Counted from the stretch's first letter, positions 4,485 through 64,000 are shown. The stretch is DNA of 64,000 bases from Candidatus Forterrea multitransposorum CG_2015-17_Forterrea_25_41 (GCA_009392915.1 CP045477.1:96001-160000); one strand, 5' to 3'. Program-made: numbers and translations. The notes: a model not told the origin generated them from the sequence alone.

Positions 4485-4561
4485 AAAAATAAGTAAACCA
4501 TTTATATACTTTATGTTATATAATTTATAATATAATTATTTAAAATAAAAAATAAATTAAG

Positions 4562-7531
4562 GTGAATATTTTGATAAAAATAAAAAAAGGACAAATTTCT
4601 TTAGAAGCAATTATTATAATTGGTGTTATTGTTTTAGCAAGTATTATATTTGCGACATTCTATATTTCTAATGTTAATAAAAAAATAGATACTGCAAGTA
4701 ATCTAGATCCTAATTTTTCTGGAATGATTGGATCTGATGAAATGGGGTCAACTGATCCTATAACTATTGGTGAAGAACCAGGTCCAGGCCCAGGTCCAGG
4801 AGGAAGTACTTGTGGTGATAATATTATTGAAGGTACAGAAGATTGTGATGGTACTAATTTAGGTGGTGCTACATGTGAGTCTGAAGGTCAAGGTACAGGA
4901 GATTTATCTTGTAATTCAAATTGTACTTTTGATTATTCTGGTTGTTCTAGTCCAACAGCAAGTTATACAATAACTTCAAGTCATGGATCAAATGGAACTA
5001 TTTTTCCTTTAGGAGCTGTAACAGTTTTAGAAGGGGCAAGTAAAAAATTTAATTTGTATCCAAATGCAGGTTATGATGTAGATACTGTTTCAATTGATGG
5101 TGCAGAAGTTTCTCTTAGTGAAAGAAGAAGTTATACTTTTAATAATGTTACTTCCGGTCATACTATTCATGTAACTTTTAAACCTTATGCTTCAAATGAA
5201 CATATTATTTTTGCAAGTAGTGGTTCTCATGGAACCATAGATCCTGCAAGAAATAATACAGTTATAGAAGGAGATGATATTACTTTTACATTTAATCCAG
5301 ATACAGGATATCGTGTAGGTAATGTCTATATTGATGATACTACTGTTGGTTCAGAACAAATAGAGATTATTAATGATTTTTCTTCAAAAGATTCTGAAAA
5401 TAATAATTTATATTTTTCAGAAGAAGATGTTTTATATTTTGCATCTGATACAGGGACAGGTACTTCTTCAAATTTAGTTTATACTTTTGAAGATGTAGAT
5501 GATAGTCATACTATTCATGTAACTTTTATATCAAACACAACTCCTACATATACTTTAGAATATATTGCTGGAGCAAATGGTAGTATTTCTGGTCCAAATC
5601 CTCAAACTGTAAGTCAAGGAGAAGATGGTACAGAAGTATGTGCTGTTGCAGATGAAGGTTATGAATTTTTTAAATGGGATGATGATTATTATTCTGAATG
5701 TAGAACTGAAACAAATGTAACAAGTAATCAAACATATACTGTTATCTTTAATGAAAATGCAGGTCAAACAATGGCTATGAATTTAGAAGGTGTTGAATCA
5801 ACTCCAATAAATCAAAACTTTGATGTTGTTGTTAATACTTCTGAAACTCCAGGAACTGTAAGTTATGGTTTAGTTGCAGGATTATTAATTTATAATGATG
5901 TTGCAGGAGATTATTTGCCAACAAACAATTGTTCTTATAACGGAACTTTTGCTTCAAATCATACACTTGAAACAAATCAATCTCCAGGTATTGAAAATTA
6001 TACTTTTACATGTAATACTTCTGGAAACTATAAATTTACATTTACAGCAACAGATACAACTAACTCAACAAATGATGTTTCAAGAGATAAATTAATTACT
6101 GTTGTAAATAACCAAACAGCAGCACCAACATTTTCAATTGATGGAGGTACTTATTTTAATGATCAAACATTAACTTTAAGTTCAACAACTCCTAGTGCAA
6201 CTATAAAATACACAACTAATGGTACTATCCCAACTTGTACTACAGGAACAACTTATTCTCCTGCAAGTCCAATTCAAATTAATCAAATTTTAACAGTAAA
6301 AGCAATTGCTTGTAAATCTGGATATATTGATAGTCAAGTTGTTACAGAAATTTATAATTTAAAAGTTGGATATCCAGAACCAAGTGTTAATCCTGGTGTA
6401 TATTCTCAAGCACAGACAATTACTCTTTCAACAGAAACAATTGGTGCAACTTTGTATTATTCAACAGATGGTTCTGATGCTTTTGATGGAAGTGTTTACG
6501 TTCCAGGAGAAGAAATTATAATTTCAAAACCATATACTGAATTAAGAGTGGCAGGAGAAAAATCAAATTATAATGATAGTTCAGAATTTGATGAATATTA
6601 TTATATAAATGGTTATGAATCTCCAACTCCAAGTATGGTTTTTACAAATTATTATGGAGATGCATATAATCTTGTAGGTGCTGCAAATTTAACTCACTCA
6701 GATGTTTTCTTTGAAGATGAAGAAAATAATTTAGTAAGATTTGTTAATCCTAAATTAAATGGAGATTATTTTAACGGAAGTAATGCTTCAGGAGCTACAT
6801 TAATAGATTGTGAGGCATTTTGTTCTGAAAAGTATCTTGGAGGAACTTGTGATTCTTTTGATAAAACTAATTATTCTGGAAATGCAAATAATTTGATATA
6901 TTATAGAAATATGATTCCTGGTTCTGGTGGTGCAAATGATGTTTTCCCTTACACAATTGGGGGTGAGTTATCTAATTCTCCTCAATGGGCTTATGCTTCT
7001 GGAGCTATTGGTGGACCAGATAGAGTAGGATACTTCACTTGTGATTTTTCACACACCTCCAGTCCAGAAGATGCAGACTTTGGATTTATTGATTTATATA
7101 CTGAAGATTTATTATTAAATTATGGTGATCCATTTGATGGTACAGAATTCTATTATGATTCTTCAAGAGTAACTTTTGATAATGTTACAAAGTCTGGTTC
7201 AGAATATACTTATTCAGGTTTAAATGTTGTAGGTAATTTTGACACACCAGGCGCAACTGCTCCAACAGGAACAGTTTATATACTTTCAGATGATTTTTCA
7301 CAAGCTTGTGATGCTGTATGTGATGCTTTATATCAAGAAAGTTCTTGTGAAAATTATGATACAACAGATGTATATACTGCTAAAGGAGTTTCATATAATT
7401 ATTATCCTCCTGAATATGCAACAATATTTAATCCTAATTTAAGTACAGGTTATTATTGGACATCTGGAAGTCAACTTTTCTATGATGTTTGGTCAGAAGC
7501 TGTTCTTTCAGAAGTTACTTGTTCAAAGTAA
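4562..7531 (+). CDS. giant surface protein with archaeal class III (type IV pilin-like) signal peptide
   Basis: 989 aa; the N-terminus (M)IKIKKGQISLEAIIIIGVIVLASIIF has the KG/Q...E(+5) prepilin-peptidase motif plus a hydrophobic helix; a Cys-rich CGDNIIEGTEDCDGTN...C repeat (Myxococcus-type cysteine-rich repeat) follows; Thr/Ser/Asn-rich beta-domain body; the start may instead be the TTG at 4571, which sits 5 nt after SD AAGGTGA. Confidence 0.5.
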   Translation: MNILIKIKKGQISLEAIIIIGVIVLASIIFATFYISNVNKKIDTASNLDPNFSGMIGSDEMGSTDPITIGEEPGPGPGPGGSTCGDNIIEGTEDCDGTNLGGATCESEGQGTGDLSCNSNCTFDYSGCSSPTASYTITSSHGSNGTIFPLGAVTVLEGASKKFNLYPNAGYDVDTVSIDGAEVSLSERRSYTFNNVTSGHTIHVTFKPYASNEHIIFASSGSHGTIDPARNNTVIEGDDITFTFNPDTGYRVGNVYIDDTTVGSEQIEIINDFSSKDSENNNLYFSEEDVLYFASDTGTGTSSNLVYTFEDVDDSHTIHVTFISNTTPTYTLEYIAGANGSISGPNPQTVSQGEDGTEVCAVADEGYEFFKWDDDYYSECRTETNVTSNQTYTVIFNENAGQTMAMNLEGVESTPINQNFDVVVNTSETPGTVSYGLVAGLLIYNDVAGDYLPTNNCSYNGTFASNHTLETNQSPGIENYTFTCNTSGNYKFTFTATDTTNSTNDVSRDKLITVVNNQTAAPTFSIDGGTYFNDQTLTLSSTTPSATIKYTTNGTIPTCTTGTTYSPASPIQINQILTVKAIACKSGYIDSQVVTEIYNLKVGYPEPSVNPGVYSQAQTITLSTETIGATLYYSTDGSDAFDGSVYVPGEEIIISKPYTELRVAGEKSNYNDSSEFDEYYYINGYESPTPSMVFTNYYGDAYNLVGAANLTHSDVFFEDEENNLVRFVNPKLNGDYFNGSNASGATLIDCEAFCSEKYLGGTCDSFDKTNYSGNANNLIYYRNMIPGSGGANDVFPYTIGGELSNSPQWAYASGAIGGPDRVGYFTCDFSHTSSPEDADFGFIDLYTEDLLLNYGDPFDGTEFYYDSSRVTFDNVTKSGSEYTYSGLNVVGNFDTPGATAPTGTVYILSDDFSQACDAVCDALYQESSCENYDTTDVYTAKGVSYNYYPPEYATIFNPNLSTGYYWTSGSQLFYDVWSEAVLSEVTCSK

Positions 7532-15897: not shown

Positions 15898-17103
15898 TTG
15901 ATTAATATGTTTTCAAAAAAAATTATTTTAGTATCTGTTTTATTTTTACTTACATCTTTATTTTCGGGGTTGATTTTCTCTGAAAGATATATAGATAGTT
16001 CTTATGTTCAAGTTATTGCTCAAGAAGTAAGTCCTGAACCAGTAGAGCCTGGTCAAGATTTTTTACTAAAAGTTAGAGTTCATAATTTTGGAACAGTGGA
16101 TGCTAAAAATGTAAAAATTAATCTTGATTTAAATTATCCTTTTTATTTAAAAAATACAAGTGAGTCTTATATTGACTTTAATTCGATTTGTTCTAATTGT
16201 TCTGCAGAAAATACATATTATTTTACAGTTTCAAGTTCTGCAGTTTCAGGGATATATCCAATACATTTTAATATATCTGAAATAAATAATGAAACTGTTT
16301 CTTTTAAACCTCAAATAATAGATATTTCCATATTAGGTAAACCTGATTTAGTTTTAGAAACCATAAAAGTAGATCAAAATATTTCTGCCGGAGATATATT
16401 TAATATTAAATTTTTATTAAGGAATATAGGTACTGGGAATTCTAGAAATATAAAAATAATTCCTAATTCTGATGATTTTATGCTTATTGGGACAAATACT
16501 AAATGGTTTGAAGAATTAGGTCCCAATAAAGAAATTATTTTTGATTTAAATTTTATTTCAAACAAAGATTTAATTTCAAATAGTTATATTTTTCCTATAG
16601 ATCTTGAATTTTTAGGAGAAAAACAAAATTTTTATACCTCTTCATATAATATTGGAATTAATCTTTTAGGAAAAGCAGATTTATCTTTACAAAATTTAAA
16701 AATTACTCCTTTAAACCCTTCTTTAAAAGATTTAATTAATTTTGAAGGAATTATTGAAAATATAGGAAATGGAAAAGCAAATAATGTTTCTTTAGAATTA
16801 TTTGTTTCAAATGATGAGAATTATAAATATTATATTGGTCAATTAAATAAAGATGATGATGCTCCTTTTTATTTTAATGAAATTAAATTTAATTCTGTTG
16901 GAAATAATAAAGTAAATTTGATTGTAAATTATGATGATGATTACGGTAATTATAAAATAGAAATTCCTTTAAATCAAAATATAAATAAATCTAATAATTT
17001 ATCTTTATTTTTTATAGTTTTATTTTTATTTTTGGTTTTATTTTTTAGTTTGTATTTATTAAAAAATAATAAACACAATAAAAATAAAAAAATAAAGAAT
17101 TGA
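15898..17103 (+). CDS. secreted CARDB-domain repeat protein with C-terminal TM anchor
   Basis: signal peptide; at least 3 repeats of a VEPGQDF...NFGTVDAKNVKIN / NIGTGNSRNIKII / NIGNGKANNVSLEL beta-sandwich (CARDB-like); C-terminal hydrophobic helix plus KNNKHNKNKK. Confidence 0.55.
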   Translation: MINMFSKKIILVSVLFLLTSLFSGLIFSERYIDSSYVQVIAQEVSPEPVEPGQDFLLKVRVHNFGTVDAKNVKINLDLNYPFYLKNTSESYIDFNSICSNCSAENTYYFTVSSSAVSGIYPIHFNISEINNETVSFKPQIIDISILGKPDLVLETIKVDQNISAGDIFNIKFLLRNIGTGNSRNIKIIPNSDDFMLIGTNTKWFEELGPNKEIIFDLNFISNKDLISNSYIFPIDLEFLGEKQNFYTSSYNIGINLLGKADLSLQNLKITPLNPSLKDLINFEGIIENIGNGKANNVSLELFVSNDENYKYYIGQLNKDDDAPFYFNEIKFNSVGNNKVNLIVNYDDDYGNYKIEIPLNQNINKSNNLSLFFIVLFLFLVLFFSLYLLKNNKHNKNKKIKN

Positions 17104-17114
17104 TTTAGATTTAT

Positions 17115-18314
17115 ATGAATAAAAAAGATATTAAGCTAATGTTTTTTTTAGCTTATAAAAATATAATTAAAAGTAAATCTACTTTTATTGTAATTGTAGC
17201 TGTAATGGCTATGAGTTTTTTGTCAATAACTTTTTTTTCTGCAATTATTGATGGGTTAAGTTATGAATTTGAAGAGTCGATGATTGATGGTCAAACAGGG
17301 CATTTAATGATCGAACCATCTAATGAAGAAAGTTTTATATTTAATTCTGATAGATTAGAAAAAAATATTTCTAAAATTCCAGGAGTAATTGGTGTTTCTT
17401 CAAGATTAGAATCAAATATTTTAATTACTTATAAAAATGAAGAGCTAGGGGCACCTGTTTTCTTTATTGATCCTATTGATGAACAAAAAGTATCTAATTT
17501 TCATGAAAGTTTAATAGAAGGTAGTTTTCTTTCATATAAAGATACATCTGAAATTATTATTGGTTCTGATTTACTAGAACAGTATGCGCCTATAGATGAT
17601 ACTAAGAAAAGGTTTAATCTTAGAATAGGGGATAATATTATTTTAACTTTTAATAATGGTTATAAAAAAGAATATAAAATCAAAGGTATTTTTAAAACAG
17701 GTTCTAAGTTTAATGATGATAAAATTTTAATTAATAAAGAAGAATATTTTTCAATATTTAATAAAGAAGATATTTCTCATAAAATACTTGTTAAACTTCC
17801 TTCAAGAGGTCTTGAAAAAGAATATATTCAAAAGATAGAAGCTTTAGGAATAATTGAACAGATTAACCCTTGGGAAACTAAGATTGGTATGATTAAACAA
17901 TTTGTAGGAAGTCTTCAAATTACAAATCAGATAACTGGTTTTATAGGTTTATTAACTGCATTTGCAACAATTTACATAATTATTTTTATAAATGTAACTA
18001 ATAAAAGAAAGCAGATAGGTATATTAAAAGCTATAGGTATAAAAAAAAAAATTATTCTTGGATCATATATTATTCAATCTTTTATTTATGGTTTTGTAGG
18101 TGTTATTTTTGGAAATATTATTATGCAAATTTTGTTGGCTTTACTTGCAAGTTATCCATTATCTATGCCTATTGGGGATGTAGTTCCATTACTAACAATA
18201 GGTAAATTATTAACTACCTCTTTTATTTTAATTTTAGCCTCTATTGTTGCAGGTTTTTTCCCTTCTAGAAAAGCTTCTAATGATAATATCTTAGATGCTA
18301 TATTTGGAGGATAG
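17115..18314 (+). CDS. ABC transporter permease, FtsX/MacB-like
   Basis: 399 aa; N-terminal TM, large extracytoplasmic domain, then 3 C-terminal TMs typical of the FtsX-like permease (DUF214). Confidence 0.65.
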   Translation: MNKKDIKLMFFLAYKNIIKSKSTFIVIVAVMAMSFLSITFFSAIIDGLSYEFEESMIDGQTGHLMIEPSNEESFIFNSDRLEKNISKIPGVIGVSSRLESNILITYKNEELGAPVFFIDPIDEQKVSNFHESLIEGSFLSYKDTSEIIIGSDLLEQYAPIDDTKKRFNLRIGDNIILTFNNGYKKEYKIKGIFKTGSKFNDDKILINKEEYFSIFNKEDISHKILVKLPSRGLEKEYIQKIEALGIIEQINPWETKIGMIKQFVGSLQITNQITGFIGLLTAFATIYIIIFINVTNKRKQIGILKAIGIKKKIILGSYIIQSFIYGFVGVIFGNIIMQILLALLASYPLSMPIGDVVPLLTIGKLLTTSFILILASIVAGFFPSRKASNDNILDAIFGG

Positions 18315-18317
18315 ATT

Positions 18318-19007
18318 ATGATTAAAAATATTATTGAAGTAAATAAACTTGAAAGAATATATTCTAATGGAATTGTTAAAACTTATGCCTTAAAAGACGT
18401 TTCTTTAAGTATAAAACCTGGTGAATTTGTTGCAATTATGGGGCCTAGTGGTTCTGGAAAAAGCACTTTACTTCATCAGTTAGGACTGTTAGATACTCCA
18501 ACTAATGGAAGTATTATTATTGATAATGAAGATGTATCGAAATTAACTGATAAACAAAAAACTACCTTTAGATTAGAAAAATTAGGTTATGTTTTTCAGT
18601 CATATAATTTATTACCAGAACTTAATGTTATTGAAAATGTTTTTTTAACCTCTATGGCTAAAGGTTTAGATCCTAAAGAATATAATTTGAGAGCAAAAGA
18701 TATTCTTGAAAAAGTAGGTTTAAAAGATAGATTGTATTATTATCCTTCTGAACTTTCTGGAGGTCAACAACAAAGAGTTTCTATTGCAAGAGCATTAGTT
18801 AATAAACCTAAAATTTTATTTGCAGATGAACCAACTGCAAATCTTGATTCTGATTCTTCTCAAGATATAATTGATTTATTTAAAAAATTAAATAAAGAAA
18901 TTAATCAAACTATTGTTATGGTAACACATGAATTAGAAGAAGGTAAAAAAGCAGATAGGATAATTTGGATTAAAGATGGTATTCTAGATAAGTCTGTAAA
19001 AGTTTAA
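18318..19007 (+). CDS. ABC transporter ATP-binding protein (MacB/LolD type)
   Basis: GPSGSGKST Walker A, LSGGQQQRVSIARAL signature, ILFADEPT Walker B. Confidence 0.85.
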   Translation: MIKNIIEVNKLERIYSNGIVKTYALKDVSLSIKPGEFVAIMGPSGSGKSTLLHQLGLLDTPTNGSIIIDNEDVSKLTDKQKTTFRLEKLGYVFQSYNLLPELNVIENVFLTSMAKGLDPKEYNLRAKDILEKVGLKDRLYYYPSELSGGQQQRVSIARALVNKPKILFADEPTANLDSDSSQDIIDLFKKLNKEINQTIVMVTHELEEGKKADRIIWIKDGILDKSVKV

Positions 19008-20560: not shown

Positions 20561-21496
20561 ATGAGTTATTTATCTAAACTTAAAAGAAATAATAAAACAT
20601 ATTATTATCTTGTAGAAAATATTCCTATATCTAAAGGTAGGCGAAAACAAATTAGAAAATATATAGGGACAATTAAACCTACAGATCAAAAATTATCTTT
20701 AGAACTATTAAAGTTTGAAAAAGAAATTACTTCTAAAAAAAAACAAATGCAAGGATTTACCTATTTAACTAAAGAAGAAATAAAAGAAGTAGATGAAATT
20801 AATTCAAATTTTTGGAAAAAATATAATAAATTATCAAAAACTGAGAGAGAAGAATTTTGGAATAATTTTATTGGAATTTTTGTTTTTAACACAAACTCAA
20901 TAGAAGGTTCAACTTTAACATTAAAGGAAGTTGAACTACTATTATCTGAAAATATATCTCCAAATAGACCTTTAGAAGATGTTTTAGAAGCAAAATCTGC
21001 AAAAAAAGCAATTAATTTTATTTTAAATTATAAATCTGATTTGTCAATAGATTTAATTACTAAAATTCATAAAATATATTTTAAAGAAAGCTTTCCAGAT
21101 ATAGCTGGTAAATTTAAAAGATTAAATAATAGAATAAAAGGATCAAAATTTGATACTACTCCAAAAGAACTAGTTTTAACTGATTTAAAAATACTTATAG
21201 ATAATTATAAAAAATTTAAAAAAGAATTACATCCAATAGAATTATCTGCTTGGTTGCATTGGTCTTTTGTAAAAATTCATCCTTTTCAAGATGGAAATGG
21301 AAGAATTTCAAGATTACTTATGAATTTTATACTTTTTAAAAATAAATATGCTTTAATAGATATTAAAACAAAAGAAAAACAAACATATTTTAATTCTCTT
21401 GAAAAATGTAATTATTTGAATAATGGAAAACCATTAGCTCAAAGATTAGTTAGAAGATTTAAAAAACAGTATAAAAATATATTTTCAAATTTATAG
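20561..21496 (+). CDS. Fic/Doc family protein (class II, self-inhibited AMPylase-like)
   Basis: HPFQDGNGRISR is the canonical Fic motif HxFx(D/E)GNGRxxR; upstream TNSIEGS matches the inhibitory-helix motif (S/T)xxxE(G/N). Confidence 0.8.
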   Translation: MSYLSKLKRNNKTYYYLVENIPISKGRRKQIRKYIGTIKPTDQKLSLELLKFEKEITSKKKQMQGFTYLTKEEIKEVDEINSNFWKKYNKLSKTEREEFWNNFIGIFVFNTNSIEGSTLTLKEVELLLSENISPNRPLEDVLEAKSAKKAINFILNYKSDLSIDLITKIHKIYFKESFPDIAGKFKRLNNRIKGSKFDTTPKELVLTDLKILIDNYKKFKKELHPIELSAWLHWSFVKIHPFQDGNGRISRLLMNFILFKNKYALIDIKTKEKQTYFNSLEKCNYLNNGKPLAQRLVRRFKKQYKNIFSNL

Positions 21497-31196: not shown

Positions 31197-32831
31197 ATGG
31201 CAATTAAAAAAAATATTTTAACTTTAGAGCTCAAATTATTAATATTTTCTCTAATTTCTTTATTTGTCCTTAAAATATTTTATATTAAACAATTAGATAT
31301 AATCTTAATTACAACTTTTTTTGATATTTTAATTTTTACATTTATTTTTTCAATTTTTATTTTATTTAAAAATATTTTTTCAAAAGTTTTATTTCATATT
31401 ATTTATGTTTTAAATTTTATTCTTTTTTCTTTTTTCTACATTTTCTATTATGATGTATCTCAAAGAGGGCTTTTCATTTCTAAAATAAAATTAGATGCAA
31501 TTACTTTTGTTTTAAAAAATATTATTTCTTTTAAATTAATATTAATTGTATTTCTTGCTTTATTTTTTATCTATTTTTTATCTTTTTTTATTTTAAAATA
31601 TAAAAAGTTTTTATTAAATTCATTTACTTTAAAATTAGTTTCTGTGATTTCTCTTTTAATATTTTTATTTCTAGTATTATTATTTAATCTAAATTATAAT
31701 CCTTATGCTGATGTTGTTTTAAATTTTAAAAATAGTTTTAGTTATATTCCTTTAGAAGATAATTCTAAAGATTTATCTATTTTTCCAGTAAACAATACAT
31801 TATATCCTGAAAATGAATTAGATATTAAATATAAAAAAATAATTCTGCTTATTGGTGAAGAATGGATGTTTTCTAGCTTTTTGAAAGATAGTAATTCTTT
31901 AGATAATAGTTTTTTTAAAAAAACTGAAAATAATACTCATTTTTATTCAAATTATTACACCACAAATCAAGATAGTAGAACTGCTATTTACACTTTACTT
32001 ACAAGTCAATTTATTCCTTTTGAAGCATATTTAGATTCTACTTATTCAATATATCTTGAAAAGATTAAAACAGTTCCAAGTCTTGTAGATTATTTTAATG
32101 ATAATAATTATTCTTCTTTCTTTGTAGTTTCTTCAATTGAACAACCAGATATTGCAACTCCTTTTAATTGGACTGAAATTGTAACTTTAAAAGAAGATGT
32201 TTATAATAGTAATAATTATTATTGTTCTTCACTTTTTACATATGAAACTTCTTGTGAAGATCTTTCTATTTTAGATGATGTGAAAAAAAAATTAATTTCT
32301 GATGAAAATATATTTTTAGTTCAAGAGTTTATTTATGGTCATAGCTACAAACATATTATAGATACTAAAAAATCAAGAACTCAATATTATAATAATTATT
32401 TTAATTCATTATATGATTTTTTAGAAAAAGAATCCTTGTTAAAAGATACTTTAATAATCATTACTTCAGATCATGGTTCTAGAGCTTACAATGAAATGGT
32501 TTCTCCTGAAGGATATCATATTCCTTTTTTAGTAATTTCAAACAATTTAGATTATAAAGATGATGATTCTCTTTTATCTCATTTAAATTTTAAAGATATT
32601 CTTTATAAATATATCTTAGGTATAGATTATATACCAAACAATAAATCTATAATGTTTACTGGTGGAACAAACAGTGATCTTTTAGGTTTTATTACAAATA
32701 AAAATGATTTTGGAATAATTAATTCTTCTAAATCATTATTAATAAATTATAATAAAGAAGATTTATCTATTAAAGAGAAATCTCAAAATCATTATAGTTA
32801 TTATAATTTTTTAAAAAATAATTTTAAATAA
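31197..32831 (+). CDS. membrane-anchored sulfatase/LtaS-family (alkaline phosphatase superfamily) transferase
   Basis: N-terminal ~5 TM helices followed by an extracytoplasmic domain with the IITSDHGSR motif typical of sulfatase/LtaS/phosphoglycerol transferases. Confidence 0.55.
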   Translation: MAIKKNILTLELKLLIFSLISLFVLKIFYIKQLDIILITTFFDILIFTFIFSIFILFKNIFSKVLFHIIYVLNFILFSFFYIFYYDVSQRGLFISKIKLDAITFVLKNIISFKLILIVFLALFFIYFLSFFILKYKKFLLNSFTLKLVSVISLLIFLFLVLLFNLNYNPYADVVLNFKNSFSYIPLEDNSKDLSIFPVNNTLYPENELDIKYKKIILLIGEEWMFSSFLKDSNSLDNSFFKKTENNTHFYSNYYTTNQDSRTAIYTLLTSQFIPFEAYLDSTYSIYLEKIKTVPSLVDYFNDNNYSSFFVVSSIEQPDIATPFNWTEIVTLKEDVYNSNNYYCSSLFTYETSCEDLSILDDVKKKLISDENIFLVQEFIYGHSYKHIIDTKKSRTQYYNNYFNSLYDFLEKESLLKDTLIIITSDHGSRAYNEMVSPEGYHIPFLVISNNLDYKDDDSLLSHLNFKDILYKYILGIDYIPNNKSIMFTGGTNSDLLGFITNKNDFGIINSSKSLLINYNKEDLSIKEKSQNHYSYYNFLKNNFK

Positions 32832-32838
32832 ATTTATC

Positions 32839-34143
32839 ATGGCCTTTAAATTATCAAAAAGAATGTTTTTTTTTATAATCTTTCTATTTATCTTTATTTT
32901 TTATTATATTTCTATTAAAGGAAGTTTTGTAGTTTTTTTAATAATGTCTTTTATTTTTTTATATTTAATAGTTTTAATAATTATTTTATATGTTCTTTAT
33001 CCAAATATTGCAAAAGAGAGGGCTTTTCCTAAAAAAGCACCAACTGTTGCAGTAGTAACTTATGCTTTTAATAATTTTCAACCTGTAAAAAGAACTATTG
33101 AAGCTTTATTAAAATTAGAGTATCCTATCCCTTTTAAGGTTTATGTAATAACTGACGGAACTTGTATTTTTTTAAAAAACTTAAAAGGTGTAAAACAAAT
33201 TGTAATTGATAAAAAATATTTTAAAAAATCAAAAAATACTAAATCTATTGTGATGAATGAAGGTTTAAAATATATTAAAGATGAAAATATTTTTTGTGTT
33301 GATGGAGATACTATAGTTGATAGTAAGGCTTTAAAAAGAATGACTGGTTTTTTAGATGAAAAACAAGTAGTTGCTGTAAATGGAATTTTAGTTCCTGAAA
33401 ATAGAAGTAGTTTTTGGGAAAAAGTTCAAGTTATAGAATATAGTCTTAATTGGGGTATTTATCAAAGAATTTTATCTGCAATGGATTCTATTAATATTCC
33501 TATTGGTGCAATGTTTCTAATGAAAAAGAAAGTATTTGATCAATTAGGAGGCTATTCTACAAACAATTTTGTTGAAGATAAAGAATTAGGTTATAGAATT
33601 ATTAAAGCTGGTTATAAGATAAGATGTTGTGAAGTTGCATATGGTTTTACAGAAACTCCTAAAACATTAAATGGCTGGTATAAACAAAGGAAAAGATGGT
33701 CTAGAGGAGAGCTTGCAACTATATATGAGCATAGAGATGTTTTATTTAATTTTAAATATAGTGTATTTGGAATGTTTGTTTTACCTTTTACTTTTTTTGT
33801 TCAAACTGTAGGTGTTGCTTTTATTTTTACATATATTTTTATTTATTTAAGAAGATTTATTATTTTTATTTATTTTTTAATTTCTGAATTTTTAAAAAAC
33901 TCTATTTTATTATATCCTAATTTTAGTAGTATTGTGCTTCCATCTACAATTTATGTTATTTTCTTATCTTTAATAATTTTCTTGATATATGCTTTATTTG
34001 CATTTAAAATAACAAAATTTAACTTAAATTACAAATATATTCTTCCTTTTGCATTTTTTATATTTATATATACCTATTTATTAATTTCTGTATATTTAAT
34101 ATCTATAATACAAGAGTTTTTAGGTTTTGAAAACAAATGGTAG
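32839..34143 (+). CDS. processive family-2 glycosyltransferase (synthase-like) with TM domains
   Basis: AVVTYAFNN (GT-A start), DGD, and QRKRWSRG (the QxxRW motif of processive GT2 synthases); N- and C-terminal TM bundles. Confidence 0.7.
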   Translation: MAFKLSKRMFFFIIFLFIFIFYYISIKGSFVVFLIMSFIFLYLIVLIIILYVLYPNIAKERAFPKKAPTVAVVTYAFNNFQPVKRTIEALLKLEYPIPFKVYVITDGTCIFLKNLKGVKQIVIDKKYFKKSKNTKSIVMNEGLKYIKDENIFCVDGDTIVDSKALKRMTGFLDEKQVVAVNGILVPENRSSFWEKVQVIEYSLNWGIYQRILSAMDSINIPIGAMFLMKKKVFDQLGGYSTNNFVEDKELGYRIIKAGYKIRCCEVAYGFTETPKTLNGWYKQRKRWSRGELATIYEHRDVLFNFKYSVFGMFVLPFTFFVQTVGVAFIFTYIFIYLRRFIIFIYFLISEFLKNSILLYPNFSSIVLPSTIYVIFLSLIIFLIYALFAFKITKFNLNYKYILPFAFFIFIYTYLLISVYLISIIQEFLGFENKW

Positions 34144-34153
34144 TTGAAATGAT

Positions 34154-34852
34154 ATGAATAAAAAAGATAAAAAATTTATTAAAAATAAAACTTTTAACAA
34201 TAATGTATTATTATTTGCATTCTTAATAATTGTGGTGTTATTTATTATTGTCTTTTCTGCAATTAATTTTTATGATAGTCATAAAAGAAAAGTAATTGAA
34301 GACGATTATAATATTTTACAACAACAGATTATTTTAAATGATCTTTATAAAAAATATTTAGATGAAACTAATTCTGAAAAATGTACTGTTTTAAAAAATC
34401 AATTAGATTCTTATCTTAATATTAATAGTGAACTTTACTTAAGACTTAAAAAAATAAATAGAAATGCAATTGTTGAATCAGATGATAGAACTAAACTTTT
34501 ATTTGTTTTAACAAATATTAATCTTTGGCTTCATTATAACTCTATTGAAAAAGAGTGTGGATATAATAAAGAAAGAGCAATTTTATATTTTTATCCTGAG
34601 TTTCAAGATTTTAGTGTCGAAAAAGCAGAATCTGATGCTAGAACTTTATTTTTTGCAGAAAAATTAGAAAGATTAACTAAAGAGTGTAATTTAAATTCAA
34701 TTGCTCTTCCTTATGTTGATTATATTCCTATTTTAAATCAAATAATTTCTGATTATAATATTAATTCATCTCCATCAGTATATATTAATGGAAAAGTATA
34801 TTATGATGTAAATTTAGATGAATCTTTCTTAAAAGAGATTGGATGTAGATAA
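34154..34852 (+). CDS. hypothetical membrane-anchored protein (thioredoxin-like C-terminus?)
   Basis: N-terminal TM; the C-terminal PSVYINGKVYYD resembles the DsbA-type PTFVINGK, but no CxxC is present; function unknown. Confidence 0.3.
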   Translation: MNKKDKKFIKNKTFNNNVLLFAFLIIVVLFIIVFSAINFYDSHKRKVIEDDYNILQQQIILNDLYKKYLDETNSEKCTVLKNQLDSYLNINSELYLRLKKINRNAIVESDDRTKLLFVLTNINLWLHYNSIEKECGYNKERAILYFYPEFQDFSVEKAESDARTLFFAEKLERLTKECNLNSIALPYVDYIPILNQIISDYNINSSPSVYINGKVYYDVNLDESFLKEIGCR

Positions 34853-34864
34853 AAGGGATAACTT

Positions 34865-35605
34865 TTGGCTTTACAGCAAACACATGTTATTTTTTTAAAA
34901 GAAATTATAGAGCTACATCCTAATCTTTTAAAAAACTATAATAAAAAATCGCTTTATTATGGAGCTGTTTATCCAGATATTTTTTATATTAGGCTACTTA
35001 AAACTAGACCTAATTTTTCACTTTATCTTCATGAAAATAAAAATATTATAAAAATAGGTGAAGAACTTTATAATAATTCATCTAATATTTCTGAAAGATC
35101 TTTTTCAATTGGTTTTTTATCTCATTTTTTTCTAGATAAAAGAATACATGGTTATTTAGAGAAAATTGGATTTATAGATGGCCCTGAACATTTATCTCTT
35201 GAGTTTTATTTATATATGTTTTTAGATAAAAAAACAAAAGTTAGTGTTTCTAAAAATCCAAACAAATTATTAAAAAAAATATTTAAATTTTATTTTAATA
35301 AACAAAATTATTTTTTTATTCCAAACATATTAATTAAAAGATTATTTTTGTTTGTTTGTAATTATATAATTAAAGAGACTATTGATATTAAGTATAAAAA
35401 AATAAAAAAAGGTAATTTTTTTAAAAATAATTTACTTAAAATCTCTTATTATTTTGCTTTTAATTCTTATGGTTACAGTGTATCTAAATTATTTAATCCA
35501 GATTTTAAATTTTTAGAAAAACATTTGCCTTTTCTTTTAAAAGAATATAATCTGGCAAAAAAAGATTTTATTGATTTTTTAAATAATGGTAATTTTTATG
35601 GTTAA
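34865..35605 (+). CDS. hypothetical protein, zinc-dependent phospholipase C-like?
   Basis: N-terminal QTHVIFLKEII and GAVYPD/SHFFLD patterns loosely recall the PF00882 family; weak. Confidence 0.25.
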   Translation: MALQQTHVIFLKEIIELHPNLLKNYNKKSLYYGAVYPDIFYIRLLKTRPNFSLYLHENKNIIKIGEELYNNSSNISERSFSIGFLSHFFLDKRIHGYLEKIGFIDGPEHLSLEFYLYMFLDKKTKVSVSKNPNKLLKKIFKFYFNKQNYFFIPNILIKRLFLFVCNYIIKETIDIKYKKIKKGNFFKNNLLKISYYFAFNSYGYSVSKLFNPDFKFLEKHLPFLLKEYNLAKKDFIDFLNNGNFYG

Positions 35606-46443: not shown

Positions 46444-46518
46444 GGGAGTGTAGCTTAGTCTGGTTGGAGCACTCGACTGATAATCGAGAGGCCGCAGGTT
46501 CGAATCCTGCCATTCCCA
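46444..46518 (+). tRNA. tRNA-Ile (anticodon GAU)
   Basis: GGGAGTG-TA-GCTT-AGTCTGGTTG-GAGC-A-CTCGA-CTGATAA-TCGAG-AGGCC-GCAGG-TTCGAAT-CCTGC-CATTCCC-A; no CCA encoded. Confidence 0.85.
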
Positions 46519-46559
46519 CTTTCTATTTTTATATAGATTTTAAAAAAAGAGGATAATTT

Positions 46560-49450: not shown

Positions 49451-49525
49451 GGAAGTGTAGCTTAGTCTGGTTAGAGCATTGGTCTTATACACCAAAGGTC
49501 GCAGGTTCGAATCCTGCCATTTCCA
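49451..49525 (+). tRNA. tRNA-Ile (anticodon UAU)
   Basis: GGAAGTG-TA-GCTT-AGTCTGGTTA-GAGC-A-TTGGT-CTTATAC-ACCAA-AGGTC-GCAGG-TTCGAAT-CCTGC-CATTTCC-A; the anticodon loop reads C-U-U-A-U-A-C; near-identical backbone to tRNA-Ile(GAU). Confidence 0.75.
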
Positions 49526-49582
49526 CTTTTTTTTAAAAATAAAGCTTTATAAATCTAATTAACTACTATATATTAGATAATT

Positions 49583-57595: not shown

Positions 57596-58099
57596 ATGTT
57601 AAATAATAAAGTTAATGCTGTAATTGACTCTTCATTTTGGATAAACTTGAGTAGAGTTGATCTTACAAAATATTTATTAGATTATTTTACTATTTATTCT
57701 ACCATAAAAGTAAAAGAAGAACTTTTTGATTTTTACGAAAGAAGAGGTTATTTTTCAAAAGATTCTTATCTTTTTAAGTTATATTTAGAAGCAGATTTTA
57801 TTATTTTAAAAGACCTTAAAGAAATTACTTTAAAAATAAAGCAAGAATTGTCAAAAGATTCTGGAGAGTTATATTCTGCTGCTCTTTTAAAGGAAATTGG
57901 AGGTGTTTTTTTAACAGATGATAAGGGGGCACTTAATTTTTGCAAAAATAATAATCTTTTTGCAATTACTTCTGTTTATTTAATAGTTAGACTTTATAAG
58001 GATAATTTAATATCAAAAGAAAAAGCTAAATTTTCAATTATGCGATTAAAAGGAAAAATAAGTAATATACATATACAATCTGCTTTAAAGGATTTATAG
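57596..58099 (+). CDS. PIN-like nuclease domain protein (DUF3368-like toxin candidate)
   Basis: 167 aa; N-terminal AVIDSSFWINL acidic PIN start; internal TDDKGAL. Confidence 0.4.
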   Translation: MLNNKVNAVIDSSFWINLSRVDLTKYLLDYFTIYSTIKVKEELFDFYERRGYFSKDSYLFKLYLEADFIILKDLKEITLKIKQELSKDSGELYSAALLKEIGGVFLTDDKGALNFCKNNNLFAITSVYLIVRLYKDNLISKEKAKFSIMRLKGKISNIHIQSALKDL

Positions 58100-58119
58100 T
58101 ATAAAAGGAGGTTTTTAAC

Positions 58120-58476
58120 ATGGTTAAAAAAGATTATAAATTGAAATCTTATAGATTATCTGATAGTTCCTTAAAATTAATATATAATGTTTCTAAAGAA
58201 AAAGATTTGAGTGAATCTGAAGCTTTAAGAATGTTAGTTGACAAAGGGCTTTATGAATATAAGTTAGAGTCAGCAATAAAAACATATTATGATAAAAATT
58301 TAGATTTAACTGCTGGAGCAAAACTTGCTGGTATTTCCAAAAGAGAGTTTATGGAAGAACTTTCAAGAAAAGGGGAAGGTATTAATCTTTCAAAAGAAGA
58401 TTATGATTATTCTAAAAAATCTTTTGAAAAATTATTTGGAAAAACAAAAAAGAAAACTACTCAAAAGCCCAAGTAG
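58120..58476 (+). CDS. UPF0175-like HTH antitoxin candidate
   Basis: 118 aa; LDLTAGAKLAGISKREFMEELSRKG resembles the UPF0175 HTH (ISLGKAAELAGMSRWEF...); SD AAGGAGG. Confidence 0.45.
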   Translation: MVKKDYKLKSYRLSDSSLKLIYNVSKEKDLSESEALRMLVDKGLYEYKLESAIKTYYDKNLDLTAGAKLAGISKREFMEELSRKGEGINLSKEDYDYSKKSFEKLFGKTKKKTTQKPK

Positions 58477-60141: not shown

Positions 60142-62544
60142 ATGCAAAAGAGATTAGGTATTTTAGGTATTTTTTTAATAGTTTTAATGTTTGTTTTTTC
60201 ATCAGGCTTTGTTTTTGCTGAAAATTCATTTGTAAGTTATAGTTCTACTTCAAAAGTAGGTTGGGAAATAACTTCTGCTGAAATTACAAATGATAATATT
60301 GAAATTAATTACATGAATAATCTTGAAGCAAGAGATTCTTGTAAAACAAATGAAAGAACTTTTATGTGGGTTCCTTTTGCAACAGAATATAGAGGTTTGT
60401 TTTTAGTAACTCTTTTTGTTCCTAATAATTTTAATAATGAATCTGGATTTGATTCATTTTTGTATGATAATTTGTCTGACAGAGGAAAAAGTGAAAATGA
60501 AACAGAAGATACTCTTAAAAAATATGAACGATATTTAAAAAGTAATGATCCTACTTTTATGAATTATTTAAATAGTTATGTTAGTGAAGATAAATATTTT
60601 TATATAGTTAAAATTGAAGATGATTTTAAACAAAATAAAAATTATACTCATAATATTGATTTAAGTATGATTAATGAATTAGATAAATTTGGAAAAGTTT
60701 ATATTTATTTATATGATCATTGTGGAAGTTTATCTTCATTTTATCATAATGACTATAAAATTTCTAAAAATCTTGCGAAAGCAGTTTATAATTTTAGTGA
60801 TGGTCAAGAAGAAACTTCTAAAAAAGAAAATGCTACTTCAATAAAATTATCTTCTTCTATTGAAGATAATAAAATAAAATTAGATTCAAATGTTACTGAT
60901 AATGTTAATATTTATTATACATTAGATGATTTTAATTTAGAAAACCATTTTAAATCAAAATTTGTTGAATTTAATTATAATAAAGAAAAAATAAATACTT
61001 ATCTTAAAAGTAATTCTTGGAATATTAATCAATTTGGGGTAAATTTTAAAGTGACTAAATATACTGCACCTGTATCTTTATCTTCTGGACAAAAACTAAA
61101 TGCAATTGCAGTTAATTATGATAATTTTACTTTAAGTAATTATCTTGAAGGAATTACTCTTTCATCTTCTGAAAATTATTCTTCATCTTCTCAAAGCAAT
61201 AATTTTTCAATTAACTTTAAAGAAGATAAAAAAACAGATAATGTGATTTGTGAAAAGGAAACAAAAATTTGTTATGTTAAATTTAATCAAAACATTGATT
61301 TAGATTTAATTGCAAATAAAGTAAATGATGGAAATGTTTATTTTTATATTAATGATATAGAAGGAGATATTGAAAATATTGTAAAAAGCTTATCTTCTCC
61401 TCTTTTAAATATTACACCACCTGCTAAATTAAATGATAATAAACTAAGTTTAGGAAGTAATTTATTCAAATATTCAGATTTAGAAAATTATACTCTAAAT
61501 CTTAATCAAAATGAATCAAAGTTTTTTACTATTAGTGCTTTCCAATTAAATACAAATGTTGATAAGTTATATTTTGTATTTTTACCTGACGAAAACTTTG
61601 AAGATTTAGTAAAATATAAAACTTTACAAAAAATAATAAATTCTGTATATTGTGATGGTTGTAAAATTCCAGATTGGATGCCAAATGGATTAATAATTGA
61701 TAATCAAAATTTATCTACTAGTGATCCTGATCCTTCTACTAGTGATCCTGATCCTTCTACTAGTGATCCAAATTGTAAATATACTGGTGATTTTGAAATT
61801 TTATGTGATTTTCATATCTTTAATTTAGATAAAGATATTGGAAGTAGTTCTATTGATAGTTCAGCAGGAACATTTAGCCCTAAAGAAACATATTATTTAG
61901 AAATTGAATATTTTTATAATGATAAAAAAAATAATTTTAATAAAAATTTAGAAGCTTATAAATTATTTGAATCTGAAAAAAATAATTTTAATCTTACTGA
62001 AAATGAAATTACAATATTTTTTTCAATAATTGGAGGAGAATCCTCTTTTTTAAATGATCAAGCTGGTGATCAAGGAGAATCTATAGGTTTAACTCAAATA
62101 AATAAACCTATATGGAGAACAGAAAGTGGTTTTAATGATCTAAAAGTATATCTTCCAAGTGAAGTTAATACAGTTGAAAAATATTATAAATATTTTGATG
62201 ATTCTAAAAATGATTTAAATAAATCTTTATATTTAGGTCTTGCAGTTTTTAAATATAATTTAAATTATGCTAAAAATAATATTTCTAACTTTAATTCAAA
62301 GTATTCAGATATTGATAGAGCATTTATAATGTTTTACGCACACCAGTTTAATATAAGAGATACAAAAACATTCTTTAATACTGTAAATATTCCTACAGAT
62401 AAAGAAAATGTAATTATTAATTGTGCAGGAACTGGTAATGATTTATTCCAAAATTCTTCTTTAAAGAAACTTGGTTGTGTTGCGACTGTAGGTTCTGTAA
62501 GAAAAATTGGATGGTATCTTAATTACATAAATAATTTAAATTAA
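60142..62544 (+). CDS. secreted protein with C-terminal lytic transglycosylase (SLT/lysozyme-like) domain
   Basis: 800 aa; signal peptide MQKRLGILGIFLIVLMFVFSSGFVFA; STSDPDP x3 linker; C-terminal IIGGESSFLNDQAGDQGESIGLTQI matches the SLT motif ES.F...A.S..GA.GLMQ. Confidence 0.45.
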   Translation: MQKRLGILGIFLIVLMFVFSSGFVFAENSFVSYSSTSKVGWEITSAEITNDNIEINYMNNLEARDSCKTNERTFMWVPFATEYRGLFLVTLFVPNNFNNESGFDSFLYDNLSDRGKSENETEDTLKKYERYLKSNDPTFMNYLNSYVSEDKYFYIVKIEDDFKQNKNYTHNIDLSMINELDKFGKVYIYLYDHCGSLSSFYHNDYKISKNLAKAVYNFSDGQEETSKKENATSIKLSSSIEDNKIKLDSNVTDNVNIYYTLDDFNLENHFKSKFVEFNYNKEKINTYLKSNSWNINQFGVNFKVTKYTAPVSLSSGQKLNAIAVNYDNFTLSNYLEGITLSSSENYSSSSQSNNFSINFKEDKKTDNVICEKETKICYVKFNQNIDLDLIANKVNDGNVYFYINDIEGDIENIVKSLSSPLLNITPPAKLNDNKLSLGSNLFKYSDLENYTLNLNQNESKFFTISAFQLNTNVDKLYFVFLPDENFEDLVKYKTLQKIINSVYCDGCKIPDWMPNGLIIDNQNLSTSDPDPSTSDPDPSTSDPNCKYTGDFEILCDFHIFNLDKDIGSSSIDSSAGTFSPKETYYLEIEYFYNDKKNNFNKNLEAYKLFESEKNNFNLTENEITIFFSIIGGESSFLNDQAGDQGESIGLTQINKPIWRTESGFNDLKVYLPSEVNTVEKYYKYFDDSKNDLNKSLYLGLAVFKYNLNYAKNNISNFNSKYSDIDRAFIMFYAHQFNIRDTKTFFNTVNIPTDKENVIINCAGTGNDLFQNSSLKKLGCVATVGSVRKIGWYLNYINNLN
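61717..61770 (+). repeat. 21-nt tandem repeat (2.6 copies) encoding STSDPDP linker
   Basis: ACTAGTGATCCTGATCCTTCT x2 plus the partial ACTAGTGATCCA. Confidence 0.8.
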
Positions 62545-62610
62545 ATATTTTTACTTTAATTAAAAGAGAAACAATTCTCTTTTTATTTCTTTATTTACTA
62601 TATATTATAT

Positions 62611-64000
62611 ATGAGTAAAAGATATTTTACAATAATTTTCTTTATATTTCTAATAATAGGTTTATCTGTTCCTATTTTTTCTGCAGAAATAAACCTAAAT
62701 CCTTCTAAAACTTATTACTACAACCAAGAAATTAATCTAGGAACAACTTCTCTTCCAGAAGAAACTTTCTATGTAAACCTAAAAATAACTTCTGAAAACA
62801 GAACTTTATTTGAAAGAGATTTTTTAAAAGAAGAAGCTTTTAACATCCCTTTTATCTTTCAAGACTTCTACCCTTCTTCTTTAACTTTAACTTATAATTA
62901 TTTTTCAGTTTCTAAAGATTTACTTGAAACAAAAGAAGCTAATTTACTTTTAACAAAACTAAACCAAGAGATTGAATATTTTTTCTGTAATGAAATTGAA
63001 TGTGAAAAAGAACTTTTTGATGTTATTGAAGAAAATAAAGATTTCTATCTTTCCTCTTCTCTAAAAAACATGTCTTTTACAGTAAAGATAACTTCACAAG
63101 ATTATTTAAAAGACTACAAAGAAGTATCTTTACCTTTAAAACTTAATTTAAAAGAAGGAGTTTATTCTTTAGAGATTTCAACACTTCTTGATGATTCAAT
63201 ATTTTCAAAGACTTTAGATATTATTGTAGTCTCACAAGATCAGATTTCTTCTCCTGAAAACAATCCTTCAGGTCTTGAAGGTTTAGGTTCTGGTGTTCAA
63301 GGTGTTCCTTCTCAAAATATTTTTCAAAAAATAAAAAGTAACAGCTTACAAGATAATTTAAGAAGCTATTGGTATATTCTTTTAATAATTATTATTTTAT
63401 TATTTTTAATATTTAAAAAAAGAAAAAAAGAACCTATGCAAGAAAATATTAAAAAAGAAAGTTCTCTTTCAAGAAGAGAAGCAAGAAAAATACATTTATT
63501 TATATTATTAATAATTATTTCTTTATTTTCACAAATTACTTTTGCAAACTTTGTTGATAAAGAATACGAGTTTAGTTACTTTACAGATGATTATAAACTT
63601 TTAGAAAAAAACTTTCCTCAAGAAAACGAAATTTCTTTATATCTTACAAATTTAAAGCAAACTAATTCTTATTTTTTACCTTTAATAAACCATACAAACC
63701 AATCTTTAGTTTATTCTCAGAAAAAAGAACTTTATCAAGGAACACTAGAATACATTCCAATATATTCTTTATTTGCAATTGATATAAATAAATCACAAGG
63801 AAATTATGCTCCTTTCTTGCCAAATGAACAATATTCTCAATATTGTAAACCAGTTTTAGATTATTTTAAAAATCATCCTGTTAGTACAAAAGTAGATTTA
63901 ATAAACAGAAATAAATTTTATTTAACAAATTATATTGGTTTTTCAAAAGAATGTATAGATGAGCTTATCTCTAAAAGATGGCTTCAAGAAAAATATGTTT
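62611..64000 (+). CDS. secreted/anchored surface protein, 3' partial (runs off the window)
   Basis: open frame from the ATG at 62611 to the window end with no stop (checked codon by codon); signal peptide MSKRYFTIIFFIFLIIGLSVPIFSA; internal YWYILLIIIILLFLIFKKRKK anchor, then a second signal-like hydrophobic segment. Confidence 0.45.
   Translation, partial: MSKRYFTIIFFIFLIIGLSVPIFSAEINLNPSKTYYYNQEINLGTTSLPEETFYVNLKITSENRTLFERDFLKEEAFNIPFIFQDFYPSSLTLTYNYFSVSKDLLETKEANLLLTKLNQEIEYFFCNEIECEKELFDVIEENKDFYLSSSLKNMSFTVKITSQDYLKDYKEVSLPLKLNLKEGVYSLEISTLLDDSIFSKTLDIIVVSQDQISSPENNPSGLEGLGSGVQGVPSQNIFQKIKSNSLQDNLRSYWYILLIIIILLFLIFKKRKKEPMQENIKKESSLSRREARKIHLFILLIIISLFSQITFANFVDKEYEFSYFTDDYKLLEKNFPQENEISLYLTNLKQTNSYFLPLINHTNQSLVYSQKKELYQGTLEYIPIYSLFAIDINKSQGNYAPFLPNEQYSQYCKPVLDYFKNHPVSTKVDLINRNKFYLTNYIGFSKECIDELISKRWLQEKYV

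Follow-up and report, generated by a model that had tools for sequence, protein, structure and literature searches.

Gene organization at the locus and its archaeal host

The DNA analysed here (64,000 nucleotides, hereafter the window) contains an open reading frame for a protein of 800 amino acids with a lysozyme-like C-terminal domain (Table 1). Translation gave exactly the position and length proposed in an earlier, sequence-only reading of this DNA. The window has a GC content of about 24% and encodes the archaeal markers thermosome, aIF5B, aIF2-gamma, an Rpb7-like subunit and GatD/GatE, as well as a protein whose signal peptide is of class III (archaeal pilin) type. The thermosome shares 99% identity with a protein bearing the label 'Candidatus ainarchaeum sp.', which is of Iainarchaeota type, and approximately 59% with proteins from Diapherotrites, Micrarchaeota, Woesearchaeota and Aenigmarchaeota. 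These markers and relatives bear out the DPANN-type archaeal host suggested earlier. Near-identical relatives of the 800-residue protein carry the labels 'archaeon' or 'Candidatus ainarchaeum sp.' only, and the exact protein is also encoded on a JGI metagenome contig of 663,621 bp. Genes for murein synthesis were not seen within the 64-kb window, and the archaeon presumably produces no murein of its own.

The protein begins with MQKRLGILGIFLIVLMFVFSSGFVFA, followed by EN after the predicted cleavage site of a Sec-type signal peptide. A Kyte-Doolittle scan of the whole protein revealed no further hydrophobic segment. Because the signal peptide is the only one, the protein is predicted to be exported without a membrane anchor, in line with the secretion proposed earlier. 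Asparagine accounts for 12.8% of the residues, against a share of 5.5% across nine housekeeping proteins encoded in the window. This enrichment, which the sequence-only reading had attributed to the N-terminal region, exists there (13.5% in residues 27–530) but is not confined to it, since residues 579–800 reach 14.4%. The 10 cysteines and 18 N-x-S/T sequons would be compatible with an extracellular archaeal protein. No paralogue was detected in the window when all six-frame ORFs were searched with the family profile (hmmsearch).

In related loci the gene is always located between a CysRS gene, which is transcribed divergently, and Kae1/TsaD. This interval also encodes, in the closest genomes, a secreted protein of 1289 residues, and the start of its gene lies in the window. 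This protein has a signal peptide and internal hydrophobic segments and contains no Pfam domain. Full-length orthologues, 95–97% identical between strains, are present in the loci L001, L002, L012 and L014, and the gene is missing at the same site in L015 and L016. We regard it as a neighbour of the lysozyme-like gene and at most as a possible functional partner. Upstream of the lysozyme-like gene lies a toxin–antitoxin pair (DUF3368/UPF0175).

Table 1. Features of the lysozyme-like gene and comparison of the window with related loci. Positions are counted from the first nucleotide of the window.
Feature	Position	Strand	Remarks
ORF of the lysozyme-like protein	60142–62544	+	ATG start, TAA stop, 800 aa
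Sec-type signal peptide, aa 1–26	60142–60219	+	Predicted cleavage after VFA; sole hydrophobic segment
N-terminal variable region, aa 27–232	60220–60837	+	No recognisable domain; most divergent between alleles
Putative beta-sandwich module, aa ~233–330	60838–61131	+	Resembles Fn3_assoc / CHB_HEX_C_1, sub-threshold
Middle Cys-containing region, aa ~345–523	61174–61710	+	Ends in Y-C-x-x-C-x-I-P-D-W-M-P, aa 503–514
21-nt tandem repeat, STSDPDP linker	61714–61769	+	TRF period 21, 2.7 copies, 100% matches, score 112
Lysozyme-like (GH23-like) domain, aa 545–800	61774–62541	+	Confidently modelled core aa 579–800 (61876–62541)
Glu633-Ser634 codons, putative catalytic acid and motif I serine	62038–62043	+	Invariant
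G649-L-T-Q652 codons, SLT motif II (GLMQ) equivalent	62086–62097	+	In register with Slt70/MltE/MltC
Downstream co-oriented gene, start	62611–64000	+	1289 aa in related contigs
L001 (allele P0005) versus window	Flanks to 60221 and from 62530		Flanks 96–97% identical; inside, 840 nt at 82%, rest unalignable
L012 (allele P0006) versus window	Flanks to 60221 and from 62556		Flanks ~97% identical; inside, ~1.2 kb at 70%, rest unalignable
L014 (allele P0002), flanks versus window			92–100% in 200-nt windows, mostly 95–98%
L014 (allele P0002), gene versus window	Divergent from about 60940 to 62730		5′ half 94–97.5%, flank-like; divergent part 47–90%
L007 (allele P0007) versus window			97% downstream; 71–74% inside the gene

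A divergent lysozyme-like domain at the C-terminus

Neither the full protein nor residues 546–800 matched the lysozyme clan in Pfam searches, even at E ≤ 10, and the domain assignment was therefore tested by other means. The curated threshold of SLT (PF01464) was not reached by the window protein. Three of 35 family members reach SLT at E ≤ 0.01, and individual members match SLT (best 7.2e-10), SLT_3, Transglycosylas and Phage_lysozyme2. A phmmer search of the C-terminal part against the PDB yielded a chance SH3 match and nothing else. Eight close relatives were found by homologue search, and a C-terminal profile, searched with HMMER against 1.84 billion representatives, recovered 34 proteins at E ≤ 0.001; the weakest tail of this search merges into true c-type lysozymes. 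Judged by these searches, the family is small and divergent. Nearly all members share the same build, in which the domain comes last, after a signal peptide, an extended N-terminal part and a Cys-containing junction.

The C-terminal segment reads GGESSF...GLTQIN (GGESSFLNDQAGDQGESIGLTQI, residues 631–653). In an alignment of 35 full-length proteins reaching down to approximately 17% identity, no column of the whole protein is invariant apart from E633, S634 and Q652, which places the motif beyond chance. G649 (at least 90%), F728, Y732 and Y792 are nearly invariant, and an alignment of the domain alone agrees. Using hhalign, E633-S634 fell on the catalytic Glu-Ser and G649-L-T-Q652 on the GLMQ of E. 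coli Slt70 and MltE; the Glu-Ser pair aligned to the ES of Slt70 (precursor residues 505–506), to E64-S65 of MltE and also to the ES of MltC and MltD. A profile of four E. coli lytic transglycosylases (LTs) was matched with E = 1e-4 over 137 columns. Profile searches of the PDB returned c-type lysozymes only, with marginal E-values from 0.0075, and all of them at Glu35, to which E633 aligned. The SLT catalytic motif that the sequence-only reading had recognized at the C-terminus thus stands in register with Slt70 and MltE, and its Glu, whose lack of conservation among homologues would by that reading have refuted the idea, is invariant.

Motif I (E-S) of the family-1 LTs is present as E633-S634, and motif II (G-L-M-Q) has its counterpart in G649-L-T-Q652, whose third position varies. 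Conservation does not extend to motif III (AYNxG): hhalign placed A701-V-F-K-Y-N under AAYNAG, with N and G absent. A701 is conserved in at least 90% of members and the Tyr position is occupied by F, Y, N or I (pattern A-[VI]-[FYN]-x-x), in a low-confidence stretch whose register is uncertain. At the place of the c-type Asp52, two positions before the conserved Gly, the domain alignment contains no conserved acidic residue; members read GESIG, GPSYG, YYSFG, CGSMG etc. around this Gly. The domain neither matches the Lys profile (PF00062) nor has the compact fold of approximately 130 residues, and its extra C-terminal helices carry the conserved residues K788 and Y792.

An AlphaFold2 model of residues 579–800, built from an alignment of 32 sequences, reached a pLDDT of 93 and a pTM of 0.91; an earlier model from 8 sequences (pLDDT 61.5) was left out of the fold searches. 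The model has an alpha-helical lysozyme-like fold with a groove between two lobes. Glu633 is located at the C-terminal end of model helix 42–56, which leads through a loop into a small beta-hairpin bearing G649 and Q652. As modelled, this is the usual lysozyme arrangement, and a catalytic Glu closing the helix before a beta-hairpin is also what is found in goose-type lysozymes. Foldseek ranked the LT/g-lysozyme group best in the PDB, with weak E-values from 0.05. Among viral structures it found phage SLT/LT_GEWL proteins and virion lysins, again with weak E-values (from 0.02). The fold, which the sequence-only reading had wanted checked, can on the basis of the model be firmly placed in the lysozyme-like superfamily, closest to GH23 (family-1 LTs and goose-type lysozyme).

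The N-terminal part and the repeat hinge

A Pfam search of residues 27–232 gave no match. The adjoining region (residues ~233–330) is probably a beta-sandwich module, as suggested by sub-threshold Pfam signals for Fn3_assoc (E = 0.001–0.003, 18–19.5 bits against a cutoff of 23) and CHB_HEX_C_1 (E = 0.012–0.13). The Fn3_assoc signal recurs in six of nine close homologues. In an alignment of nine sequences, comprising the window protein and eight homologues, the region contains the conserved block IYYTLDDFNL...KYT.PV.LSSGQKLNAIAVN. The same alignment shows C370, C377, Y503, C504, C507 and I509–P514 of the middle region to be invariant, and YC..C..P.W.P is retained across the wider family in the consensus of the 35-protein alignment. 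Several relatives carry accessory modules, as replacements or additions: Lcl_C/DUF1566 in six, LRR in two and an FGE-sulfatase-like module in one. As far as domain searches tell, the pattern is that of a conserved, presumably lytic module to which exchangeable modules, putatively for binding, are joined. The allele P0005 has an extra C-terminal domain of approximately 210 residues. By eye it had been considered an NlpC/P60-like Cys/His peptidase; Pfam and the PDB gave no support for this, nor did they reveal any relatives of the domain, and the assignment was dropped.

The linker in front of the lysozyme-like domain translates as STSDPDP-STSDPDP-STSDP. Earlier it had been described as three STSDPDP copies encoded by a 21-nt tandem repeat; the period of 21 nt is perfect, but only two copies are full and the third is partial. 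The length variability foreseen for this repeat was found in the allele P0001, a protein of 793 residues that is 99% identical to the window protein and present on 20 ENA contigs. Its DNA (locus L002) differs from the window in the repeat region solely by an exact deletion of 21 nt, i.e. one repeat unit, so that copy number differs between populations (three versus two). Other alleles in the nine-sequence alignment have a single degenerate copy or none.

Allelic hypervariability of the mature protein

Comparison with related loci revealed a sharp contrast between the gene and its surroundings (Table 1). In L001 and L012 the loss of identity begins at the end of the signal peptide (60221) and ends at the stop codon (62530–62556). 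The signal peptide itself is near-identical across all alleles, with high nucleotide identity to the related genomes until 60221. The neighbouring proteins of L001 and L012 (AsnRS, CysRS and the toxin–antitoxin pair) are 96–99% identical to those of the window, whereas the lysozyme-like protein is only about 50% identical overall to their alleles P0005 and P0006 (25–34% in the N-terminal part, 64–74% in the middle and 36–48% in the catalytic domain). At least five alleles occupy the CysRS–Kae1 site in backgrounds that are approximately 97% identical, and the putative active-site residues are unchanged in every one of them. The part of the gene encoding the mature protein is a hypervariable mosaic cassette, swapped or recombined between genomes that are otherwise approximately 97% identical. 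Such a pattern is what one would expect if a surface protein recombined and its targets drove its diversification. A scan of GTDB genomes with a single protein returned one locus only.

A target of a diversity-generating retroelement (DGR) has a variable repeat (VR) at its 3′ end, with the matching template repeat and a reverse transcriptase close by. In L012 and L016, whose alleles bear Lcl_C, the vicinity of the gene's 3′ end contains no direct repeats of at least 30 nt, and no reverse transcriptase is present among the called genes of the related loci. Moreover, the divergence covers the entire mature protein, unlike the VR of approximately 100 nt in DGR targets. With neither template/variable repeats nor a reverse transcriptase in these loci, and with divergence of this extent, diversification by a DGR was rejected.

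Proposed function and alternative explanations

We favour, with moderate confidence, the interpretation that the gene encodes an exported modular enzyme that cleaves murein and is aimed at bacterial peptidoglycan. The Sec signal peptide would direct the enzyme out of the cell. The long Asn-rich N-terminal part, probably glycosylated and disulfide-bonded, would most likely serve as a spacer or targeting module, and the Ser/Thr/Asp/Pro repeat as a flexible hinge of variable length. The C-terminal 220–250 residues would form the glycan-cleaving domain with Glu633 as its single general acid, and Ser634 and the G649-L-T-Q652 hairpin may shape the substrate cleft as in family-1 LTs. A single-acid mechanism, as in LTs and g-type lysozymes, is suggested because a conserved second carboxylate equivalent to Asp52 is lacking. 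The chemistry would thus resemble that of an LT or of a goose-type lysozyme, both cutting the beta-1,4 bond between MurNAc and GlcNAc; transglycosylase and hydrolase are indistinguishable by sequence.

Peptidoglycan of the bacteria on or beside which the archaeon lives is the most likely target, since the top matches by structure and by motif are without exception murein enzymes and since the archaeon is not expected to have murein of its own. Cleavage could breach the wall locally for attachment or feeding, or could release amino sugars and peptides. Wall cleavage in a cross-domain interaction is a plausible function, in which we infer separately that the domain is catalytically active, that it acts as an LT or a hydrolase, that murein is its substrate and that it has a cross-domain role. 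The replacement of the mature part and the swapping of modules (Lcl_C/DUF1566, LRR, FGE-sulfatase-like) would suit diversification driven by the host or target. A bolder form of this proposal, which we hold tentatively and consider rather improbable, sees a cross-domain 'attack and recognition' cassette: the whole mature part, targeting modules as well as a rapidly evolving catalytic domain, would be recombined among near-identical strains so that alleles match different bacterial hosts, and the cassette would work like a receptor-binding or lysin module of phages. If this were true, the lineage would live on bacteria and not on archaea, and the allele at the CysRS–Kae1 site would be a determinant of host range.

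The main rival is that the lysozyme-fold glycosidase is active on a substrate other than murein, for instance chitin-like or another beta-1,4 amino-sugar polymer, pseudomurein, or a surface glycan, either from an archaeal host or from the cell's own envelope or matrix. We think this unlikely. It is quite improbable that the domain is a dead lysozyme fold that merely binds glycans in what would be purely an adhesin. The architecture is indeed like that of surface proteins, relatives contain adhesin-type modules (Lcl_C, LRR) and the sequences on the binding side are highly divergent; against this, with divergence down to approximately 17% identity and hypervariable alleles included, nothing in the protein stays invariant except the Glu-Ser pair and the motif II Gln, which argues for an active site that is retained and not decayed. 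Finally, we give next to no credence to the idea that a virus or mobile element brought the gene into the archaeal chromosome as cargo, be it an endolysin or a virion-associated lysin: despite structural neighbours such as phiKZ gp144, tail-associated lysins and the SLT/LT_GEWL proteins of phages, and a hypervariable locus with the DUF3368/UPF0175 pair upstream, the gene occupies the same CysRS–Kae1/TsaD site in genomes with 76% to 97% identical flanks, a conserved chromosomal synteny on which a prophage or mobile-element origin was rejected, the listed loci contain no phage structural, integrase or terminase genes, and the variable segment starts right after the signal peptide and stops at the stop codon, boundaries that point to allelic diversification of a resident gene and not to insertion of an element.

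The exported murein-cleaving enzyme favoured here bears on the question of whether some DPANN lineages depend on bacteria instead of archaea. To our knowledge, every DPANN archaeon in culture grows on another archaeon. Because the gene is the strain-variable spot in an otherwise conserved neighbourhood, it is a candidate determinant of specificity, whose alleles might be compared with the bacteria that accompany them in metagenomes. Residues 545–800 with E633 offer a concrete and small target for biochemistry. Since the window protein has no Pfam match to the lysozyme clan and its family is annotated as 'hypothetical', the reported absence of GH23/SLT in DPANN surveys may partly reflect undercounting.

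Comparison with known systems

Family-1 LTs (GH23; E. coli Slt70, MltC and MltE, C. jejuni Cj0843c) resemble the window domain in the predicted fold and in motifs I and II. Their reaction is non-hydrolytic and yields 1,6-anhydro-MurNAc products. In contrast to them, the window domain is not detected by Pfam SLT, does not have the AYNxG of motif III and carries extra C-terminal helices with the conserved K788 and Y792; it is archaeal and follows an unrelated N-terminal region of approximately 520 residues and a repeat hinge. Goose-type lysozymes, the GH23 hydrolases, are eukaryotic, small, single-domain proteins, with approximately 12% identity to the window domain.

The best sequence-profile matches of the family in the PDB are c-type lysozymes (GH22; hen egg-white, insect). 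The family pattern ESSF...(S)[FY]G.AQIN..W mirrors (F)ESxF...DYG[IL]xQIN..WW around Glu35 of these enzymes. However, c-type lysozymes use two catalytic carboxylates, Glu35 and Asp52, and the window family has an equivalent of Glu35 only. Virion-associated lysins of phages and T6SS muramidase effectors (phiKZ gp144, phi29 gp13, Tse3, TseP) may be compared by way of analogy, the likeness being one of use; unlike them, the window gene is resident, chromosomal and archaeal, and its product is predicted to be exported by Sec and not delivered by an injection machine.

The core idea is not new, because exported DPANN proteins with LT-like domains have already been published. Castelle 2021 (PMC8204110) reported large exported DPANN proteins with a murein-like LT domain (fam00969) and proposed that they may bind and degrade bacterial cell walls, with Rinke 2013 and Castelle 2015 cited there for earlier observations. 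Later surveys make the same point (PMC10936187, PMC11537232). According to these three sources, genomic clues to DPANN lineages that depend on bacteria are few, and exported enzymes that cleave murein belong to them. New are the small divergent family itself (34 representatives), which standard annotation has missed, the hypervariable mosaic of the mature protein in genomes with approximately 97% identical flanks and, probably, the occurrence in a lineage labelled other than Pace- or Woesearchaeota. Members have no precomputed Pfam SLT annotation and are named 'hypothetical' or by Lcl_C/DUF1566 only. The published description of fam00969, to which the family may yet belong, differs in two respects: its lineages are Pace- and Woesearchaeota, whereas the closest named relatives of the window family bear an Iainarchaeota-type label, and hypervariability at the strain level does not figure in the available part of the account. 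Both concern large proteins that are exported by DPANN archaea with very small genomes and contain an LT-like domain, and for both the proposal is that bacterial walls are bound and degraded, possibly in episymbiosis with bacteria.

Allelic variation of the lysozyme-like gene

Comparison of the window with four related loci from other contigs or genomes (L001, L007, L012 and L014) showed that the part of the gene encoding the mature lysozyme-like protein (60222-62541) is a hypervariable, mosaic cassette. In the flanks of the gene, nucleotide identity to these loci is approximately 96-97%; it falls exactly past the signal peptide and is regained where the stop codon lies. This site, between CysRS and Kae1/TsaD, is occupied by at least five different alleles.

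The product of the co-oriented downstream gene carries a signal peptide as well as internal hydrophobic segments, and no Pfam domain was detected in it. This protein is 95-97% conserved between strains, whereas the neighbouring lysozyme-like protein is variable. Its gene is lacking at the same site in two further related loci, L015 and L016. Upstream, a toxin-antitoxin-like pair is located between AsnRS and CysRS, and the second gene of the pair shares 20 nt (58457-58476) at its 3' end with the convergent CysRS gene. The pair is duplicated in L012 and missing in L015.

Accessory domains

Several alleles (P0006, P0007, P0008 and P0010, at loci L012, L007 and L016) end in an Lcl_C/DUF1566 domain, and one distant relative of the lysozyme-like protein carries an FGE-sulfatase-like domain. 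Both are C-type-lectin-like folds, which are frequent targets of diversity-generating retroelements. A template/variable repeat pair was sought beside the lysozyme-like genes of L012 and L016 and none was found. One allele, P0005 (L001:6001-9072), has an additional C-terminal domain of approximately 210 residues (residues ~813-1023) that contains a Cys...His pattern (CATFAREAG ... YTHVALYVGD). By eye this domain resembles an NlpC/P60-type peptidase, but Pfam and PDB sequence searches did not support the assignment.

Search sensitivity

Using an alignment of eight C-terminal sequences as query, a word-indexed homologue search returned no matches, even though the aligned proteins themselves are in the database and an exhaustive HMMER search recovered 34 proteins of the lysozyme-like family. 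An empty result from the word-indexed search should not be taken to mean that homologues are absent.

Other genes of the window

Two tRNA-Ile genes are present, one with the anticodon UAU and the other with GAU, as well as two tRNA-Gln genes with the anticodons CUG and UUG. A genome-encoded tRNA-Ile(UAU) is uncommon in archaea, where AUA is usually decoded via a modified CAU anticodon.

Features of the window and their positions
Feature	Position	Remarks
Downstream gene	62611-64000, continuing past the window end; full length L002:10449-14318	1289 residues
Toxin-antitoxin-like pair	57596-58476	DUF3368 PIN-like and UPF0175
tRNA-Ile genes	49451-49526; 46444-46519	
Zn-dependent phospholipase C homologue	34865-35605	
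Family-2 glycosyltransferase	32839-34143	
Sulfatase-family protein	31197-32831	
Fic/DOC-domain protein	20561-21496	
CARDB-domain surface protein, then FtsX-like permease and ABC ATPase	15898-19007	
989-residue protein	4562-7531	Class III (pilin-type) signal peptide; CHB_HEX_C_1, Fn3_assoc and Flg_new_2 modules
Peptidase_M6 (InhA-like) homologue	2397-4484	Large surface or secreted protein

The sulfatase-family protein, the glycosyltransferase and the phospholipase C homologue are encoded by clustered genes (31197-35605) whose products act on the envelope or on lipids. If secreted by a putative episymbiont, a phospholipase C could have a partner's membrane as an additional target. Besides the lysozyme-like protein, two more large surface or secreted proteins, the Peptidase_M6 homologue and the 989-residue protein, are encoded at 2397-7531. 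The types of beta-sandwich module found in the 989-residue protein are also weakly detected in the lysozyme-like protein.
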